Of a stretch of 64,000 nucleotides of DNA, positions 8,717 to 48,344 are shown in pieces. The position numbers and the translations under genes were made by a program. Positions within the stretch are counted from its first letter, which is position 1, and each line of letters starts with the position of its first letter. The notes under the pieces are model-generated. The model saw only the letters and a program-made list of their open reading frames with translations, did no database searches and had not been told where the DNA came from. Origin of the DNA: Candidatus Nomurabacteria bacterium (lineage in GTDB: Bacteria > Patescibacteriota > Patescibacteriia > HK-STAS-PATE-3); NCBI GenBank assembly GCA_023898465.1, contig CP060223.1, positions 192,001 through 256,000 of the forward strand, given 5' to 3'.

Positions 8717-8852
8717 TTTTTTGTATTTTTTGGACGAGTGTAATTCGACCATCTGACCTACTCTATGATAGTATAGGTGTGTCGACAAGGCTCTGTCAAA
8801 GCCATTTTCCTTACTACAACAAAATTGTGCTACATCGGGGGAGTACATATTG

Positions 8853-9881
8853 ATGCGAATAAATAGTAATTCGCGTCGAAAAAAGCATATTAGTCTGCTC
8901 GTCATTCTTGGAGTGACGATGCTGTTTTTTGGTGTTTCCCAAGCATTTGCGTATTGGACTGAGCCTGATTTACCAGCCCCTGATTCCAGCGTGGGATATC
9001 CGATTTTCCAGGGCAGTGCAAGTGATATTTCTAGCCTTCTCAGTCAAACTAAGACCGGTGGACTCACTATTGGTCCTCCTGGAACTTTAGATATATCAGG
9101 TGGATTAAACACCAGCACTGTTTCTAGCACCTCAAATGTGGTTGTGGACAGTGGCCAGCTCTGTTTAAACGGTTTGTGTATTAGCTCATGGGGTGCGATT
9201 GCGGGAGGATATGTCCATCTGAGCCCTATTTCGGCTGATGCGGGTACGCTTTGGGTGCAGAGTAACAGTTCTGACCCGGCGCTAAACTCAAAGATTATTC
9301 CTAAAAGCAACTTCTTTGGAGTCCGCAGTATTGCCGCAGAGCCAAGTCCAGCTGCTCAGACTGCTGGAATAGCAGGTGATAGTTCAGATCAAGCCTCACC
9401 ACCCGGAGACACTCCCACCTATGGTATCGGTGGCGTGGCGGTTAACATCTCCTTCTGTGTTGGTGGAAGTAACGCCGGCGAGGTGTGTACGGCAAATAGC
9501 GATTGTACTTCAAATGTTTGTACGCCATACGATAAGAGTACGGGTGTATGGGGCTCAAATGGTGGAAATGCGAATGCCTGGGCTGGACGTTTCGATGGTC
9601 GGGTCGGTGTAGAAGGCGAACTTTGTATTAACGGCGATTGTCGCGATGTTTCAAACTGGGGCCCACCTGGTGGGTATAACGATTATGTGCGGGTACAAGA
9701 CAGCGGTGATCCTATTTTCCAAAGCGGTTTGGTAAAAATTCAAGGTACAGTGAAGAGTGGTCAGTTTGTTTTAGGTGCGCCGACTGCCTCCACCTCAATT
9801 TTGTTGACCTGCGGCGATAATCTTTGTAATTACGGTGAAAATGGCGAAAATATTGTAAATTGCGCGGAGGATTGTTCCTAA
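8853..9881 (+). CDS. Secreted Cys-containing surface protein, paralog A (N-domain + CGDG-type Cys knot)
   Basis: Signal peptide (…VSQAFA|YWTEPD); shares N-terminal module (QTKTG, ICLNGxC, YVxLS, AxAGxFxGxV) with 9883 and 15005 genes; ends with LTCGDNLCNYGENGENIVNCAEDCS knot. Confidence 0.6.
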   Translation: MRINSNSRRKKHISLLVILGVTMLFFGVSQAFAYWTEPDLPAPDSSVGYPIFQGSASDISSLLSQTKTGGLTIGPPGTLDISGGLNTSTVSSTSNVVVDSGQLCLNGLCISSWGAIAGGYVHLSPISADAGTLWVQSNSSDPALNSKIIPKSNFFGVRSIAAEPSPAAQTAGIAGDSSDQASPPGDTPTYGIGGVAVNISFCVGGSNAGEVCTANSDCTSNVCTPYDKSTGVWGSNGGNANAWAGRFDGRVGVEGELCINGDCRDVSNWGPPGGYNDYVRVQDSGDPIFQSGLVKIQGTVKSGQFVLGAPTASTSILLTCGDNLCNYGENGENIVNCAEDCS

Positions 9882-43903: not shown

Positions 43904-43939
43904 GCAAAAAAAAGACCGGGCCACGTGCCCGGTTTTTTA
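43904..43939. terminator. Bidirectional rho-independent terminator between ndk (+) and the minus-strand hypothetical
   Basis: AAAAAAAAGACCGGGCcacgtGCCCGGTTTTTTAAA; A-run and T-run flank a GC stem. Confidence 0.6.
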
Positions 43940-44569
43940 AATGTGTTCTTTCGCTAGCCGTTTAAGTTTTTGGCCCGCAGAGGTTGTTGTAATTTTATTT
44001 GTAATGGCGAGTCCGTGCTTTAATTGGCTCACTGTTTTTTCAGGGGCATATGAATGCGGTGAGTCTGCAAACTTATCTAAAAAGTTTTCTTTTAGTGTTT
44101 TAAATTTTTGCTCATCAAATTTGTTAGAGTTACGATCGTAGCTGAGTTCATAAATTGTCGCTAGTTTGTCTTGATATACTTCAGCTCTATGTTCTGTTGT
44201 TACCCAAAAGAAATCATTATCTTTTTTTGAGGATTCTTGCATTGCTTCACATTGGCTATAAAAAACACTTATTTCTTGTAGTTCATCTTGATCAAAGTCC
44301 GCAGCAAAAAGATACGAGAAGTCTCTCCAGCTATTATTAGGTAAAATATGAGGAAAATCTTTTGCACCTCTCTCCACTAAGCCTCGTATTTCTTCGATCC
44401 TTTGTTCAGCGTTACGAATTTCGGTTAATAATATTCGCGCTACATCAGTTTTTTTATCTTTTCTCTGACGTCGATATAATATTAACGTAGATAGTCCAAG
44501 TAGGCCGACTAGAAATGTAGAGAACGCTTCAACGTGATCGATAAATAAGTAAGAAATAATATGATTCAT
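43937..44569 (-). CDS. Hypothetical membrane-anchored protein, AT-rich gene adjacent to tRNA-Pro
   Basis: 210 aa; N-terminal TM helix; no motif recognised; appears AT-rich compared with neighbours. Confidence 0.45.
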   Translation of the reverse strand: MNHIISYLFIDHVEAFSTFLVGLLGLSTLILYRRQRKDKKTDVARILLTEIRNAEQRIEEIRGLVERGAKDFPHILPNNSWRDFSYLFAADFDQDELQEISVFYSQCEAMQESSKKDNDFFWVTTEHRAEVYQDKLATIYELSYDRNSNKFDEQKFKTLKENFLDKFADSPHSYAPEKTVSQLKHGLAITNKITTTSAGQKLKRLAKEHI

Positions 44570-44590: not shown

Positions 44591-44667
44591 TGGTCGGGGT
44601 GGCGGGACTTGAACCCACGACCTCATGCACCCCATGCATGCGCGCTAGCCAACTGCGCCACACCCCG
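44591..44667 (-). tRNA. tRNA-Pro (anticodon GGG)
   Basis: Reverse complement CGGGGTGTGGCGCAGTTGGCTAGCGCGCATGCATGGGGTGCATGAGGTCGTGGGTTCAAGTCCCGCCACCCCGACCA folds as cloverleaf: anticodon stem CATGC/GCATG, loop ATGGGGT (GGG), T-loop TTCAAGT, encoded CCA. Confidence 0.8.
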
Positions 44668-44742: not shown

Positions 44743-45348
44743 ATGCGCATTCGTCAATGGATAATTGGCATTCTCGTGCTCGCCACTGGACTGACAGTGT
44801 CTATTCAAGCTGGTAACTTTGTGTCGAATCATTGGGCTACTCATCCCAGCGTGCATGACATTGTGCTTGAGCATATTCCTTATGTGAATTTATTTTTTAT
44901 AGGCGAGATGTTGTACTGGCTAGTGCTGGCTACATATTTGCTTTTGTATATTCGTTATCAACGCGCACAGATTCCTTACATTCTTTGCTTGGTCGGCATC
45001 TATTATCTCTTGCGTTCTCTCTTCCTTATTCTTTTACCCATTGGTCATCCGTTTAGTGCGCCAGAGTATGGAGAACGCTGGAGTGCCTATCCGCAATTTG
45101 CTTATTTTCCCAGCGGTCACCTTGGCTTCCTCACCATCATCACGCTTGGCTTAGGGCCGATTCGTTTTCACCGTTGGTTTTGGTTGCTCGTACTTTTCTT
45201 TGGTGTAGGCATGATCGTCACGCGGGCACATTACACTGTGGATATACTTGGAGCAGTGGTTATTGCGTATGCCGTGTACGCGTTTGCGGAACAACATTTA
45301 CGTTCGCGTTGGTTTGCAAAAAACACTCAGCCGGCGCTGGGCAAATAA
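44743..45348 (+). CDS. PAP2-superfamily membrane protein (phosphatidic acid phosphatase type 2-like)
   Basis: 201 aa; polytopic; PSGH and (T)RAHYTVD motifs resembling PAP2 motifs II/III. Confidence 0.5.
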   Translation: MRIRQWIIGILVLATGLTVSIQAGNFVSNHWATHPSVHDIVLEHIPYVNLFFIGEMLYWLVLATYLLLYIRYQRAQIPYILCLVGIYYLLRSLFLILLPIGHPFSAPEYGERWSAYPQFAYFPSGHLGFLTIITLGLGPIRFHRWFWLLVLFFGVGMIVTRAHYTVDILGAVVIAYAVYAFAEQHLRSRWFAKNTQPALGK

Positions 45349-45361
45349 TTTTTCCTAGTGC

Positions 45362-46024
45362 TTATCTCAACCCTTCACTAAGCACCGCGTCTAAATCCCA
45401 ACGCACTCGGCGACGCTCTGGCTTGGCAAAAATATATTCAAAAACTTTTTGCATAAATCCAAACACTGCAGATCTCAATGAAAAGTCAGTTGGGCCAAGG
45501 AGTTTTTCACGCTCGCTGTTATTCAGTGGTCGGGCGCCAGCACTTTGTCTCAGCTCATCAAAGGCCTCATCGCCAATTTTTTGGTGTAAGGCATCCATAA
45601 AGCGGCGGAGCAATTTTCTTGCCCGCGCATAATCACGCAGATTCCAATCAGGGTTAAAAAAGAGCGAGAGGGTGCGCACGGCATGCTCCTCATTTGTCAT
45701 ACCCTGATGTACTGCCAGGTCTTGAATAAGGTGGATAGCAAAACCCAGCCAGACTAATCGCTCAGAGCTAGGGCTGTGTTGTATTTGCGCTATGTATTCT
45801 TTTAGCTGCGCACTGGTTGCTTGAGAGGCGAGCTTCGGGTCGGTAGGTTCGCCGTACTCAGTAGTACTCGGAGTTGCTGCATTTGGGATGCATTTATTCC
45901 AGCGGTGCCAATCAGTCCACTGGGCACTTTGGCCTAGGATGCCAGCAGTTTCTTTGCTAAAGCCGTATTCACGCGCTACAGCCATTGCTTGTCGTTTATG
46001 GAGGTAGGGGATCATGTTCTCCAT
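45362..46024 (-). CDS. Hypothetical protein, possibly zinc-dependent phospholipase C-like fold
   Basis: 220 aa; His/Asp-rich pattern (…WTDWHRW…, …HLIQDLAVHQGMTNEEH…) reminiscent of Zn-PLC / P1-nuclease metal ligands; weak. Confidence 0.4.
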   Translation of the reverse strand: MENMIPYLHKRQAMAVAREYGFSKETAGILGQSAQWTDWHRWNKCIPNAATPSTTEYGEPTDPKLASQATSAQLKEYIAQIQHSPSSERLVWLGFAIHLIQDLAVHQGMTNEEHAVRTLSLFFNPDWNLRDYARARKLLRRFMDALHQKIGDEAFDELRQSAGARPLNNSEREKLLGPTDFSLRSAVFGFMQKVFEYIFAKPERRRVRWDLDAVLSEGLR

Positions 46025-46061
46025 AGTAGCCTGAAAAACTGAGTAAAGCGAATGGATATAC

Positions 46062-46090
46062 TTGACAAATTATATAATTAGTAGTATAAT
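46062..46090 (+). promoter_or_regulatory. Consensus sigma70 promoter (TTGACA-17-TATAAT) driving the GC-rich islet
   Basis: -35 TTGACA 46062-46067; 17-nt spacer; -10 TATAAT 46085-46090; followed by ~170-nt structured leader and SD GGGGGAAG before ATG 46266. Confidence 0.55.
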
Positions 46091-46265
46091 ACTCAGTTCT
46101 ACGCTAAAAATAGCGAAATTTGTCAAGCGTATGAACCCCCTCCGTATTGGCCTCGGACAAAATCGAGGTCAGTGCGGAGGGGCGCACATTGAGAATTCAT
46201 CTCGTGTATGTTACTCCGGCTTGCTTCGACGGAAGTAGGTCTAGACCAAACGTTTGGGGGAAGAA

Positions 46266-47516
46266 ATGCAAAGCAAGGGTTTCTGGTTCACGTTGATCAT
46301 GACCAGCTTGGTCATGTTGCTTCTCTCCGCGGCTATGGCGCAAGCCACGTCGCAACCGATGATTCCGAGGAGCCTCCTGGCAACCCCTTGGCACACTGCC
46401 GAGGACGCGAGTGGCGATCTCATCGTCACTACCCAGGATTCCGACATCAACGGTATCTGGTCTTCGTCTCACGCAGACTCGTCTGCCGAGGCCGTGGCTA
46501 TGTGGGCGGACATCGTCGCCTACAACAAGCAGCATGGAATGACTGGGAAGGACTTCACCCGGATGATTCCGGGCGAGACCACCTACCGTGTGCCTGTCTG
46601 GCGGGCGGAGCAGTTCAAAGCGTGGTACAAGTCTCGCAACAACGTGCCGACGGCCACGTCTGCAATCGAGTCTGCTCCGGAATCGACCAACCCTGGTCGC
46701 GGATTCCCAGGCTTCCTCGGCGGTCTACTGGCTGCTGGAGCTCTGGTCGGTGCGACTACTCTCGGAACCCGGCAACGGAGGCGCTTGCTTCAACCGTCCA
46801 ACGCAAACCCGATGCGGCAAAGCCCGCTCGAGAATGTCGAGGACGCGGCGACAGAGGTTCGGGAGCAGATCCTGGCCTTCAGTCGTCTCAACCCCACGTC
46901 TCCGGAATCTCTGGTGAATCCGGAGGAATGGACCATCGTCAGCGCTGTCCGTGGCCTCGGTAACGGGGCGGTCGAGTCCCACTTCAGCAACGGTTCCACG
47001 AGGAAGGAGAACTTCCACAACGAGCCGTGCTACGAAGTGACGGCGCGCAACACTTCGGGTGAGGAGCGCAAGTTCTACATCCGGATCAAGTGCGCGAACC
47101 AGCTCACCGGCCTGACGGGTCAGTTCGGGCTCGACGACTTCACCTTCACTCCTGGAGGCGATGCAGTCGAGCTGAACATGCCTTTCGTACCCGCCGCTGA
47201 CCCCACCCCCGCCACCACTGCTACCGCTGACTCGACTCCGGCTGCTACTTCGACCGAAAGCGCTCCTGCGCCGACGGACGAAGCTGCTCCGACCGAGGCT
47301 GCTCAGGTTCCGGCCGAGACCGAGGCAGATCTTGACCTGGTCAAGATCGAGGCTCTGGGCGAGGGTCAGTTCCGGATCACGCGATCTGGACAGCCCCTCG
47401 AAGTGAATGGTGACTACATCACCATTACTAGCTGGAAGGGCTTCAGCTTCTTTCATCGGGGGAATGAGACCCTGGTGATTCCGCCGAAGTCCACCGACAC
47501 CACCCCGCAGGCCTAA
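46266..47516 (+). CDS. Hypothetical secreted/membrane protein encoded in GC-rich (~60%) foreign-looking DNA
   Basis: Start at ATG 46266 after SD (ORF track starts at TTG 46254). Signal peptide (MQSKGFWFTLIMTSLVMLLLSAAMAQA), internal TM followed by RRR (GFPGFLGGLLAAGALVGATTLGTRQRRR), Pro/Thr/Ala-rich linker (PAADPTPATTATADSTPAATSTESAPAPTDEAAPTEAAQVPAETE). GC-rich codon third positions unlike rest of window. Confidence 0.6.
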   Translation: MQSKGFWFTLIMTSLVMLLLSAAMAQATSQPMIPRSLLATPWHTAEDASGDLIVTTQDSDINGIWSSSHADSSAEAVAMWADIVAYNKQHGMTGKDFTRMIPGETTYRVPVWRAEQFKAWYKSRNNVPTATSAIESAPESTNPGRGFPGFLGGLLAAGALVGATTLGTRQRRRLLQPSNANPMRQSPLENVEDAATEVREQILAFSRLNPTSPESLVNPEEWTIVSAVRGLGNGAVESHFSNGSTRKENFHNEPCYEVTARNTSGEERKFYIRIKCANQLTGLTGQFGLDDFTFTPGGDAVELNMPFVPAADPTPATTATADSTPAATSTESAPAPTDEAAPTEAAQVPAETEADLDLVKIEALGEGQFRITRSGQPLEVNGDYITITSWKGFSFFHRGNETLVIPPKSTDTTPQA

Positions 47517-47542
47517 GAGCCTAGCGGACACGAGATGAACCC

Positions 47543-47580
47543 GAGCCCCGTTTGCTACATGCAGCGGGGCTCTTTTCTTT
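47543..47580 (+). terminator. Rho-independent terminator after 46266-47516 gene
   Basis: GAGCCCCG-tttgctacatgcag-CGGGGCTC followed by TTTTCTTT. Confidence 0.6.
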
Positions 47581-47619
47581 GCTATACTGTACATAGACGT
47601 GCTTACACAGGAGGGAGTC

Positions 47620-47904
47620 ATGTCAGACGCTCATTGCAACGGTACTGCACAGGGAGTTCCTGAGATTCGCGAGGTGCAGATTGGACTTCACGAAGGGGTG
47701 GTACGTGCGCATCTGCTGCACGGGACTGGTCCTTTTGATCATGTAGAGCTCAAGGATGCCGGTAACTGCCTCTTGGTGACCGCTGATGGCACCGTGCTAT
47801 CGCTCACGCTTGCTTCGGAGACCATCATGGCTGCTACCTGGCATGGGCGACTTCAATCAGTGCAGGAAGCTGCTGAACGAGGTAGCGATGTGCCGCAGCA
47901 GTGA
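47620..47904 (+). CDS. Small hypothetical protein (GC-rich islet)
   Basis: AGGAGGGA SD then ATG 47620 (MSDAHCNGTAQGVPEIREVQ…); ORF track variant begins 47599; high GC; no motif recognised. Confidence 0.4.
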   Translation: MSDAHCNGTAQGVPEIREVQIGLHEGVVRAHLLHGTGPFDHVELKDAGNCLLVTADGTVLSLTLASETIMAATWHGRLQSVQEAAERGSDVPQQ

Positions 47905-47968
47905 GACAAACACAATCAATATCCCACCTGCCTAGGTTTCATTACGAGACATGGGCAGGTTTCACATG

Positions 47969-47997
47969 TTGACAGCTTTTAGGGGATTCTCTAGAAT
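47969..47997 (+). promoter_or_regulatory. Consensus-like sigma70 promoter (TTGACA-17-TAGAAT)
   Basis: -35 TTGACA 47969-47974; 17-nt spacer; -10 TAGAAT 47992-47997; upstream of 48030 ORF. Confidence 0.5.
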
Positions 47998-48029: not shown

Positions 48030-48344
48030 ATGCGCGAAAGCGAAGGATTCTCCCCAGAATTTATGGAAAACGAAAGCGACAGTGCGATGAGCGCTGAAGC
48101 GGCCGAAGCAAATTTCATTGATGAGGGAGCCCAACAGTGCGTGGTGATTGAGCCAGGCAATATTGACGTACAAACTGTCACCCAATTTGCCACAGAGCAG
48201 GGAGCGCTCATCGAGGACGAAGACGGTGGCAATCAGGATCGTTATGTGATTCGTTTCCCCGAGGGTGAACAGCAAGCGCTGACCTACGAGGAATTACGCG
48301 ACCAGATCGAAGTACATGCCCAGGAATGGGCCGAGGCAGCCTAG
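48030..48344 (+). CDS. Small acidic hypothetical protein
   Basis: 104 aa, strongly acidic (many E/D); followed by hairpin+T-run terminator at ~48352-48395 (GCGCAGCTCTTG…CAAGAGTGCGCTTTTCTATT). Confidence 0.45.
   Translation: MRESEGFSPEFMENESDSAMSAEAAEANFIDEGAQQCVVIEPGNIDVQTVTQFATEQGALIEDEDGGNQDRYVIRFPEGEQQALTYEELRDQIEVHAQEWAEAA

Follow-up and report, generated by a model that had tools for sequence, protein, structure and literature searches.

A GC-rich gene for a predicted membrane protein in a variable chromosomal slot of Candidatus Nomurabacteria, most likely derived from GC-richer members of its own bacterial group

The locus described here raises the question of why one short segment of a 47%-GC Candidatus Nomurabacteria genome looks like DNA of a much GC-richer organism, and from where it could have come. 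The window, i.e., the whole stretch of 64,000 nucleotides (64 kb) of contig CP060223.1 that was analysed, has 46.7% GC, with a standard deviation of 2.6% among sliding 1250-bp windows. Two-boundary maximum-likelihood segmentation placed the GC-rich segment at 46325-47899, with 60.3% GC versus 47.2% around it. The sliding-window GC peaked at 61.6% at position 46301 (+5.6 sd), the next peak anywhere in the window being 51.2%. Tetranucleotide distance from the window mean gave z = 6.3 for 46201-47800, with a next peak of 2.3, and the base-composition-corrected signature of the same interval showed the lowest correlation with the window (0.21 versus 0.60±0.115). The segment is the sole strong compositional outlier of the 64 kb. 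An earlier note had described a GC-rich islet with GC-biased third codon positions and spurious long ORFs in several frames, proposing a sliding-window check of GC, GC3 and tetranucleotides, and all of this was borne out; the spurious ORFs in other frames are a product of the GC-rich DNA.

Most of the segment is occupied by the coding sequence of a 416-aa protein, with a GC of 0.609 and a GC3 of 0.731, compared with 0.431±0.056 for the 53 other ORFs (z 5.4). GC2 is likewise raised (z 2.1), the amino-acid composition is shifted too, and the sequence deviates at all three codon positions. The first 20 codons have a GC3 of 0.85, which places the onset of the compositional shift at the start codon. 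The base composition of the coding body corresponds to that of a genome of about 59% GC, unlike the promoter and the 170-nt leader, which are of native GC. At four-fold degenerate sites, T amounts to 0.26 and A to 0.07, while G reaches 0.33 versus 0.13 in the native tuf, fusA and rps genes. Native highly expressed genes favour T- and C-ending codons and shun G-ending ones, whereas the islet gene does the opposite; translational selection was therefore ruled out as the cause of the codon bias.

The three genes with the highest GC3 of the window are adjacent to each other: the 416-aa gene and two small ORFs of 94 and 104 aa downstream. The second GC-rich ORF that the earlier note had seen is the 94-aa ORF; it exists, but its GC3 is only mildly raised (0.516), and its high GC (0.565) sits in the first codon positions (GC1 0.726). 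As the same note had stated, there is no integrase or repeat at the borders: no convincing flanking direct or inverted repeats (att-like sites) were found around the islet, and no integrase or transposase domains were detected among the neighbours with Pfam and NCBIfam. The tRNA-Pro gene lies 1.4 kb from the islet with two native genes intervening, there being no tRNA junction, and no paralogue of the 416-aa gene was found elsewhere in the 64-kb window.

Table 1. Features of the GC-rich locus and its surroundings (positions in the window)
Feature	Position	Strand	Remarks
220-aa gene, H6760_01030	45362-46024	-	divergent neighbour of the GC-rich gene; native GC 0.49, GC3 0.46
Sigma-70 promoter, perfect consensus TTGACA-17-TATAAT	46062-46090	+	only 12/12 site in 64 kb
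5' leader, about 170 nt	46097-46265	+	native GC; 3' end GGGGGAAG, Shine-Dalgarno-like; alignable with the L005 and L018 leaders
Leader hairpin, 19 bp, 8-nt loop	46137-46182	+	z = -8.1
Invariant leader block CATTGAGAATTCATCT	46187-46202	+	identical in window, L005 and L018
GC-rich CDS, 416 aa, H6760_01035, USN53738.1	46266-47516	+	reading frame backed by homologues
Predicted signal peptide, aa 1-27, AMA-QA cleavage-type motif	46266-46346	+	hydropathy; recurs in homologues
Putative LysM-like ectodomain (TsaP/FimV type), aa 28-148	46347-46709	+	family profile and AF2 topology
Transmembrane helix, aa 149-171, then RQRRR	46710-46778	+	hydropathy/AF2; positive cluster family-conserved
Predicted cytoplasmic alpha+beta domain, aa 190-306	46833-47183	+	conserved; G234, C276, N278 nearly invariant
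Pro/Thr/Ala-rich disordered linker, aa 307-358	47184-47339	+	pLDDT <50; counterpart in homologues
Small C-terminal beta-rich domain and tail, aa 359-416	47340-47513	+	AF2 strands 360-387, low confidence
Intrinsic terminator (hairpin and T-run)	47543-47580	+	GAGCCCCG ... CGGGGCTC then TTTTCTTT
94-aa ORF, H6760_01040, USN53739.1	47620-47904	+	GGAGGG Shine-Dalgarno; right-hand part of GC-rich segment
Near-consensus promoter TTGACA-17-TAGAAT	47969-47997	+	33 nt 5' of ATG at 48030
Acidic 104-aa ORF, H6760_01045	48030-48344	+	third slot gene; GC3 0.552, second-highest of the window

The 416-aa gene is an autonomous transcription unit composed of promoter, structured leader, Shine-Dalgarno sequence, CDS and intrinsic terminator, followed by the two small ORFs (Table 1). 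The terminator had been predicted by the earlier note and was confirmed. Three sites in the 64 kb have at least 11 of 12 promoter matches, and two of them are those at 46062-46090 and 47969-47997. The note had taken these two as promoters bracketing the islet; both exist, but since the second lies 33 nt upstream of the 104-aa gene it is assigned to that gene and is not an islet bracket. In the two contigs carrying a homologue at the same locus, L005 and L018, CTTGACAAATT and the -10 position of the first promoter are kept, and the DNA upstream of members of the 416-aa family holds a site with at least 11 of 12 matches at seven of eight loci (10 of 12 at the eighth). The leader folds with -74.2 kcal/mol (z = -5.8). 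Hairpins of 20-22 bp are found at the same place in the L005 and L018 leaders, with a common CCCC/GGGG base and an interior whose sequence differs yet pairs. No Rfam family matched at gathering scores in the whole window, or at E<=1 in 45.9-48.1 kb. The 16 matches of the CATTGAGAATTCATCT block in viral contigs, without flanking similarity, were discarded as chance.

The earlier note had described the product as a secreted or membrane protein with a signal peptide, an internal hydrophobic segment followed by arginines and a Pro/Thr/Ala-rich linker of the kind found in secreted proteins. All these parts were found. The 19-residue Kyte-Doolittle average exceeds 1.5 at residues 4-11, and the N-terminal hydrophobic segment with its AQ motif is found again in homologues. 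However, the linker comes after the transmembrane helix and the positive cluster, which predicts a place in the cytoplasm and not outside the cell; it contains no tandem DNA repeats. Residues 359-416 can be aligned with the C-termini of four homologues (P0005 and P0008-P0010). The 416-aa protein had no match in Pfam, NCBIfam, PHROGs or PADLOC, and its alignment-based AF2 model none in PDB or BFVD by Foldseek.

For the N-terminal domain, the best PDB matches of the family profile were LysM chains, namely the LysM domain of TsaP (3jc8, E 0.006) and 6ve2_O (E 0.0075), and Kbp, LytE and a phage LysM protein were also matched, the whole range being E 0.006-0.24. The AF2 model of the ectodomain has a beta-alpha-alpha-beta topology compatible with LysM. 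Pfam LysM (PF01476) did not match the window protein and hit one of 11 family members at E 0.009. The domain after the helix gave weak scores with PepSY proteins (YpeB, YpmB), the LysM-like and PepSY-like assignments both being below family thresholds. PepSY domains are normally extracytoplasmic, whereas a cytoplasmic location is predicted for the candidate domain from its place C-terminal to the transmembrane helix and RQRRR; Foldseek against PDB gave no match for it.

FimV/HubP proteins consist of a signal peptide, a LysM-type ectodomain, a single transmembrane helix and a long cytoplasmic region with a low-complexity acidic or proline-rich stretch, and the 416-aa protein has its parts in a matching order. 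Models for FimV/HubP are expected in Pfam and NCBIfam, and neither these nor LysM models matched the window protein. It differs from FimV/HubP in its cytoplasmic domain, a small alpha+beta fold and not a TPR/FimV C-terminal motif, and in its host, a Parcubacteria cell. Overall, the architecture suggests a bitopic membrane protein with a Sec signal peptide, an external LysM-like ectodomain that may bind peptidoglycan, and one transmembrane helix. The cytoplasmic half would comprise the conserved alpha+beta domain, a flexible Pro/Thr/Ala-rich linker and a small beta domain. Such a protein could be strongly expressed, be anchored to the wall and serve as a transmembrane scaffold or sensor, whose lineage-variable part would be the exposed domain.

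Homologues were searched in libraries of 5.8 billion and 1.84 billion proteins, a check suggested by the earlier note. Only Parcubacteria, unclassified or unnamed metagenome proteins were matched: those with names come from Nomurabacteria, a Parcubacteria-group bacterium and an unclassified "bacterium", the rest being unnamed metagenome proteins, and none of the matches in either library bears an actinobacterial name. The closest homologue is only 50% identical, and no donor sequence for the islet gene was found. The placeable homologues are all Parcubacteria or unclassified MAGs. They have the whole architecture in common, including the Pro/Thr/Ala linker. Among the GTDB species-representative genomes, a scan with the single protein gave no match, the source genome apparently not being one of these representatives, and a scan with the family alignment only an unclassified-MAG contig (L007/L009); the first JGI metagenome scan revealed no relative. 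There is no conserved downstream partner gene across the family.

The gene lies in a conserved Parcubacteria locus with the order tRNA-Pro, PAP2, 220-aa gene, slot, rpmB and M50 peptidase. Relatives of the 220-aa gene are rare, three in 5.8 billion proteins plus L018, and in L005 and L018 it adjoins a 416-aa homologue. The motif HL(I/V)QDLAVHQG is invariant in its family. The 220-aa protein could not be assigned to any family, with only sub-threshold, chance-level matches in Pfam, NCBIfam, PHROGs and PADLOC, and its family profile matched no PDB sequence. Regarding the small ORFs of the slot, the 94-aa protein has no match in Pfam, NCBIfam, PHROGs or PADLOC and no homologue was found in related loci, a variant with one amino-acid difference (P0021) being known from another assembly. 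The 104-aa ORF is missing from L005 and L006, present in the ENA contig L016, and has a weak match to a PHROG of unknown function (E 0.022), the sole PHROG or PADLOC match among the slot genes; its family matches are all sub-threshold and at chance level, as with the 220-aa protein.

The gene content of the slot, bounded by the 220-aa gene and rpmB/M50, varies. In L006, a syntenic relative of 59% GC with flank identities to the window of 71% (M50) and 80% (L28), the 416-aa homologue is absent and six unrelated genes fill the slot; the mean gene GC3 of L006 is 0.732, compared with 0.731 for the islet gene. In both L005 and L018 a homologue occupies this locus, oriented divergently from the 220-aa gene, and exceeds its neighbours in GC by about 12-15 points. 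The gene has a GC of 0.65 versus 0.50 for its immediate neighbours in L005, whose native GC is uncertain because the contig itself is compositionally patchy, and 0.61-0.63 versus 0.50 in L018. A comparison of L005 with L018 gives identities of 86.5% for the 215-aa protein, 84.5% for the DNA from the intergenic region up to nucleotide ~132 of the CDS, and only 38.6% for the ectodomain, which is more similar to the window allele (46.5%) and to the homologue P0006 (51.6%). The difference between flanks at 84.5% and an ectodomain at about 39% points to allele exchange, an argument based on ~55 residues and one contig pair.

The explanation preferred here, to which we give an even chance of being correct, is that the islet represents an allele of a membrane protein specific to the clade, with a LysM-like ectodomain, that was acquired by lateral exchange from a sister lineage of higher GC. 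Lineages of this Parcubacteria clade would swap the gene body through homologous recombination, for which the conserved 220-aa gene and the leader would supply the homology on one side. The allele in the 47%-GC genome would be an import from a higher-GC sister lineage, only partly ameliorated, T at four-fold sites having risen to 0.26 and A being still at 0.07. Parcubacteria of ~58% GC and a shift of 8.9 GC points inside one genus are on record (PMC11188291). The GC offset also recurs outside the window, at the same locus in the relatives and at other loci in L007 (+14-18 points) and L010 (+9), which speaks against import. A recurring offset needs several imports or a persistent pool of GC-rich alleles, and it fits a gene-specific force equally well.

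Horizontal acquisition, as claimed by the earlier note, retains in its favour the foreign-looking composition, the self-contained unit and the variable slot. That note had named equally GC-skewed homologues in related genomes, together with uniform coverage, as the sign of a native gene, and such homologues were found in L005 and L018 at the same locus and in L007 at another; therefore, a simple, recent, one-off event is not the whole story. The comparison with compositionally atypical acquired genes (genomic islets) is similarly divided. The islet gene resembles them in its deviation at the three codon positions and in tetranucleotides, in its variable slot, and in its partial drift to host composition at T-ending codons, which relates to the amelioration framework for acquired genes reportedly due to Lawrence and Ochman. 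Most acquired genes are AT-richer than their host, whereas the islet gene is GC-richer. It also differs in having no integrase, repeats or tRNA junction, in having a same-offset homologue at the same locus in relatives, and in its boundary, a start codon behind a conserved native leader. With regard to absence from the same locus in relatives, a criterion for genomic islands, the slot holds other genes in L006 and the homologue in L005 and L018.

The alternative that survives best, unlikely though far from negligible, is a native, vertically inherited gene whose CDS is held GC-rich by a gene-specific force. Candidates for it are GC-biased gene conversion (gBGC), if selection for diversity in the surface domain makes the locus recombine unusually often, and selection acting at the mRNA or codon level, given very strong transcription of the gene. 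The common position and GC offset in the window, L005 and L018, the offsets in L007 and L010, the shift exactly from codon 1 behind a conserved promoter and leader of native GC, the near-consensus promoters throughout the family and the rapid ectodomain divergence between close relatives are all in line with it. However, the effect of gBGC on bacterial GC is of a few points, far below the offset of about 30 GC3 points observed here, the codon choice is opposite to that of native highly expressed genes (four-fold G), GC2 and amino-acid composition are shifted too, and the distant members P0008 and P0013 have no or a negative offset. In 11 of 14 bacterial groups, GC3 was found to be higher in recombining genes (PMC4450053), in agreement with a native gene.

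A more general picture, which we regard as doubtful, is that Parcubacteria would carry a strongly transcribed family of LysM-like, wall-anchored transmembrane proteins as a recombination-exchanged surface locus, where promoter and hairpin leader stay chromosomal and the coding body is swapped, remaining 10-15 GC points above low-GC hosts through a GC-rich allele pool or biased gene conversion.

Phage morons are autonomous promoter-gene-terminator units of deviant composition, and the islet is similar in its near-perfect promoter, its terminator and its composition. A moron-like cargo left by a phage, plasmid or other mobile element would also suit the location in a variable slot, but it is very improbable. 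The islet has no prophage context, its neighbours being PAP2, rpmB and M50, and no phage homologue by sequence or fold: tblastn gave no match in 50,697 phage and 72,556 plasmid records, IMG/VR scans with the 416-aa alignment, the 220-aa alignment and the leader 16-mer returned only chance 16-19-nt matches and no relative, and BFVD contained no similar fold. Neither the 416-aa protein nor the 94-aa ORF matched PHROGs or PADLOC, the 104-aa ORF only reached the E value given above, and integrase and repeats are missing nearby.

Even more improbable is that an epibiotic cell recently took up the gene from its high-GC Gram-positive (actinobacterial) host, the donor that the earlier note had contemplated on account of the high GC and the Pro/Thr/Ala-rich linker. 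CPR bacteria are often epibionts, which would agree with it. Against it stand the libraries without any actinobacterial-named match, the GTDB representatives that gave only L007/L009, and the placeable homologues from Parcubacteria or unclassified MAGs. Since the linker recurs in the Parcubacteria homologues with the rest of the architecture, it is not an actinobacterial hallmark. In addition, promoter and leader are conserved with Parcubacteria relatives, and the GC3 of 0.73 equals that of the 59%-GC relative L006 and is well below the expectation for most Actinobacteria.

That the MAG is chimeric here, a piece of high-GC contaminant having been assembled into it, has a near-zero probability: same-strain short-read contigs do stop at the edges of the GC-rich body (46076, 46209 and 47958), but misassembly is unlikely because the independent Logan contig L001 (SRR12358675) covers 45283-47046 at 100% identity, crossing the left junction and reaching 781 nt into the CDS, Logan contigs (longest 3343 bp) also carry the 104-aa ORF and the one-residue variant of the 94-aa ORF, the gene adjacency is the same in L005 and L018, and the conserved leader runs unbroken into the CDS. 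Continuity across the islet, which the earlier note had wished to see verified, is thereby established at the left junction, with short-read contigs ending at the positions mentioned. A hypervariable Pro-Thr-Asp-repeat gene of a Gracilibacterium, with a locally variable Pro/Thr-rich region, also broke an assembly (PMC6851277). Both cases are alike in that short-read contigs stop at the islet gene and that its exposed domain differs sharply between close relatives. They differ in that the islet gene has no tandem nucleotide repeats and varies between lineages, not within an array, and the comparison made showed no homology between the two genes.

The most likely source of the GC-rich stretch is therefore higher-GC relatives of the same bacterial group and not an actinobacterial host, and the claim of gene capture from such a host is removed. 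An uncharacterised protein family is defined, with no Pfam, NCBIfam or PDB assignment and a recognisable architecture, accompanied by a partner gene and a structured leader that are both conserved. If import of the allele from a higher-GC sister lineage is correct, the locus would be a clean, small case of gene flow between Parcubacteria of very different GC, the exchange occurring at a fixed chromosomal slot and affecting a strongly expressed envelope protein. This would bear on the surface diversification of reduced, probably host-dependent cells, and, if the family is indeed a recombination-exchanged surface locus, it would be a marker for the diversification of cell surface and host interaction in epibiont-like bacteria.

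The earlier note's claim of a GC-rich outlier was borne out. Sliding windows of 1250 bp (overall GC 46.7%, sd 2.6%) peaked at 61.6% GC at position 46301, the runner-up anywhere in the window being 51.2%. Two-boundary likelihood segmentation placed the GC-rich segment at 46325-47899 (60.3% against 47.2%), in a Parcubacteria (CPR/Patescibacteria) genome of ~47% GC. The same region was the top tetranucleotide outlier (z = 6.3; next peak 2.3) and showed the lowest composition-corrected signature correlation. GC3 of the 416-aa gene is 0.731 versus 0.431±0.056 (z 5.4, about 55 ORFs), and GC2 is likewise elevated (z 2.1). Since GC3 already stands at 0.85 over codons 1-20, the compositional shift starts exactly at the start codon. 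Just below in GC3 rank the two small downstream ORFs, of 94 aa (0.516) and 104 aa (0.552), and the three highest-GC3 genes of the window all lie in the slot that runs from the 220-aa gene to rpmB; by our own arithmetic on 56 genes, the chance of the top three being adjacent is ~0.002.

The islet was also said to come with a consensus promoter. This promoter exists, but neither it nor the leader of the GC-rich gene is high in GC. Sites of at least 11/12 number three in the 64 kb, two of them within the islet locus; the third, TTGACA-18-TATACT, is at 8799 on the minus strand. Both promoters described as bracketing the islet are present, but the one at 47969-47997 sits 33 nt upstream of the 104-aa ORF and serves that gene. 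The terminator, hydrophobic segments, RQRRR and Pro/Thr/Ala stretch were all found as claimed. No family was found in Rfam for the leader or transcription unit.

Features of the islet locus and of the corresponding loci in relatives (L005, L006, L018 and other L-numbers, retrieved contigs)
Feature	Position	Strand	Remark
Nucleoside diphosphate kinase, 201 aa	43285-43890	+	NDK domain matched at ~10-53 and 101-187
210-aa ORFan	43937-44569	-	32-38% GC; N-terminal transmembrane helix; no family match
tRNA-Pro(GGG)	44591-44667	-	directly adjoined by the 210-aa ORFan
220-aa gene	45362-46024	-	three relatives in 5.8 billion proteins, plus one JGI contig
Promoter TTGACA-17-TATAAT	46062-46090	+	sole 12/12 site in 64 kb
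5' leader, ~170 nt	46097-46265	+	-74.2 kcal/mol; z = -5.8 vs shuffled
Leader hairpin, 19 bp	46137-46182	+	z = -8.1
Leader block CATTGAGAATTCATCT	46187-46202	+	3' of leader hairpin
416-aa CDS, H6760_01035	46266-47516	+	product identical to USN53738.1, hypothetical protein of a Candidatus Nomurabacteria bacterium MAG
GC-rich hairpin and T-run	47543-47580	+	3' of 416-aa CDS
94-aa ORF, H6760_01040	47620-47904	+	GGAGGG Shine-Dalgarno; downstream of terminator
Acidic 104-aa ORF, H6760_01045	48030-48344	+	own promoter; after 94-aa ORF
Homologous leaders	L005:840-1040, L018:303-503	-	window counterpart 46097-46265
Family promoter-like sites	L005:1063, L018:528, L010:7880, L013:334, L015:4, L017:874, L008:~9848, window 46062		
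Secreted 418/436-aa protein	L005:1823-3079, L006:4829-6139	-	between 215-aa gene and PAP2
~35%-GC patch and adjoining PycTM gene	L006:7950-9000 and 9269-9736		patch encodes DUF3800 protein
60-65% GC block	L005:7732-11435		other genes of contig ~50% GC

The GC offset was then compared among relatives. In L005 the family gene has GC 0.651 and GC3 0.80, next to 215-aa and PAP2 genes of GC 0.50, the native GC of this contig being uncertain because its GC-rich block makes it patchy. That block, in which a 461-aa adenylosuccinate-synthetase-like gene lies between two unknown proteins, may be mobile DNA. The family gene reaches GC 0.61-0.63 in L018 (215-aa gene ~0.50), GC 0.62 and GC3 0.70 in L007 (neighbours GC3 0.44-0.47), and GC3 0.56 in the distant member L010 (upstream neighbours 0.32-0.39). 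The offset is absent for homologue P0008 (GC 0.57 in a 55%-GC contig) and negative for P0013 (0.41; neighbour 0.50).

In the ~59%-GC syntenic relative L006, the nine genes lying beyond the low-GC patch have a mean GC of 0.588 and a mean GC3 of 0.732, the latter indistinguishable from that of the islet gene. Four-fold sites are A.07, C.34, G.33, T.26 in the islet, A.11, C.36, G.41, T.12 in L006, and A.19, C.28, G.13, T.40 in the native tuf, fusA and rps genes. Translational optimisation of a native gene was rejected, the islet spectrum being unlike that of tuf, fusA and rps. Given its L006-like GC3 and its four-fold spectrum, the islet gene resembles one from a high-GC Parcubacteria relative, with T-ending codons starting to rise. 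Parcubacteria MAGs of ~58% GC are documented, and GC differs by 8.9 points within one genus (PMC11188291). Alternatively, the gene could be native, with a gene-specific force, whether selection or biased gene conversion at a hot spot of recombination, keeping its coding sequence rich in GC; the offset does recur in relatives and coincides exactly with the CDS, but its size and the non-native codon preferences tell against this rival, which is less likely than not.

No family was found for the 416-aa protein in Pfam, NCBIfam, PHROG or PADLOC. Exhaustive HMMER searching of 1.84 billion representatives gave ten distant relatives (E 2.6e-9 to 5e-4), mostly of 316-410 aa. Most full-length relatives share one architecture: a signal-peptide-like N-terminus with a terminal AQ motif, then an N-domain, a single transmembrane helix with basic residues after it, a conserved domain with almost invariant G234, C276 and N278, a Pro/Thr/Ala-rich linker and a small C-terminal domain. 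The family N-domain profile matched solved LysM domains (TsaP 3jc8, E 0.006; 6ve2_O, E 0.0075), with further matches to Kbp, LytE and a phage LysM protein, and one member matched Pfam LysM (E 0.009). The alignment-based AF2 model (mean pLDDT 62; 80-90 at residues 220-306) has an ectodomain beta-alpha-alpha-beta unit and an alpha+beta sheet domain C-terminal to the transmembrane helix. Membrane-protein topology is predicted by the positive-inside rule, by which the LysM-like domain would be extracellular and the part beyond RQRRR, linker included, cytoplasmic. The protein resembles FimV/HubP in order of parts and TsaP in LysM subtype, but was filed under none of these families, since it matches no curated family model tested.

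Searches of phages, plasmids and viral contigs returned no relative of the 416-aa protein, so that a phage or plasmid moron is very improbable. The named homologues are P0011, from a Parcubacteria-group bacterium, and P0005, from an unclassified 'bacterium' MAG, the others being metagenome proteins; with no actinobacterial name among those named, the actinobacterial or host donor put forward in the earlier note is very improbable. A chimeric assembly is hardly credible, since Logan contig L001 (SRR12358675), identical (100%) to window 45283-47046, crosses the left junction.

L001 spans the native 220-aa gene, the leader and then 781 nt of the GC-rich CDS. The 94-aa ORF also occurs in Logan and ENA assemblies; for a 1-aa variant of it and for the 104-aa ORF the longest recorded contig is 3343 bp in both cases, which probably captures the right-hand junction in another strain. 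Same-strain short-read contigs of further data sets (L002, L003/L004, L016) end at 46076, 46209 and 47958, the edges of the GC-rich body, a pattern compatible with low coverage of GC-rich DNA as well as with assembly-graph/strain-level branching at the slot.

In L005 and the closely related L018, a 215-aa homologue of the 220-aa gene forms a divergent pair with the family gene, and the L005 family protein is 50% identical to that of the window across 229 residues. The motif HL(I/V)QDLAVHQG is invariant in the 220-aa protein, for which the one hint of a family is a weak match to zinc-dependent phospholipase C (E 0.078). L006 is syntenic (identities: M50 peptidase 71%, L28 80%, PAP2 45%, 215-aa protein 44%), with tRNA-Pro at the end as part of the shared locus. 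Between its 215-aa gene and rpmB are six unrelated small genes and no family member; since other genes occupy the same position, the slot is variable. The comparison of loci draws on four to five that are informative, and in two of them the sequence stops within the gene.

The secreted 418-aa and 436-aa proteins of L005 and L006 are 30% identical, without Pfam match, and their gene has no counterpart in the window; the L005 copy, at GC 0.60, is also richer in GC than the genes next to it. The DUF3800 gene of L006 and the adjoining PycTM (Pycsar effector-like) gene near tRNA-Pro look like a defence islet. The AT-rich 210-aa ORFan of the window is possibly another acquired gene, and the two-stretch NDK match implies an insertion of ~45 residues.

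The intergenic regions of the window, L005 and L018 can be aligned, with CTTGACAAATT, the -10 position and an invariant 16-mer in common. All three contain a hairpin of 19-22 bp on a common CCCC/GGGG base, with an interior that differs yet pairs; 3' of this lineage-variable hairpin, the structured leaders carry the invariant CAUUGAGAAUUCAUCU. Possible roles of the conserved leader are mRNA stabilisation, cleavage by RNase III or the binding of a protein. Sigma-70 promoter-like sites of at least 11/12 were found at seven of the eight family loci having upstream DNA (L008, 10/12), with leaders of 50-197 nt, and are scarce in the rest of these contigs (0-4 per 10-15 kb).

Between L005 and L018, DNA identity is 84.5% from the 215-aa gene across the intergenic region to about nt 132 of the CDS, and the 215-aa proteins are 86.5% identical, but identity of the family proteins drops to 38.6% past the signal peptide. 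There the L018 fragment resembles the window allele (46.5%) and homologue P0006 (51.6%) more closely than it does L005. This suggests, from ~55 residues of sequence, that the gene body was replaced by recombination or that the exposed domain diversified very fast.

As a phenomenon, the islet gene is like compositionally atypical accessory genes, but it is unusual in being GC-richer than the host, lacking mobility signatures and occupying the same locus in relatives. Among CPR bacteria, local hypervariability of a Pro/Thr-rich gene has a precedent in a Pro-Thr-Asp-repeat gene of Gracilibacteria (PMC6851277), but that gene varies through tandem repeats, which the islet gene lacks. The horizontal acquisition from a high-GC donor proposed earlier survives as a proposed lateral import, with GC3 equal to that of L006, but not with an actinobacterial source. 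Lateral allele import is the best explanation, at about an even chance, with a native gene under a gene-specific force as the main and less probable rival. The islet would then be an allele, exchanged laterally, of an envelope protein specific to the clade, donated by a higher-GC sister lineage to a conserved variable slot, where promoter and leader would stay through homology while the allele comes in.
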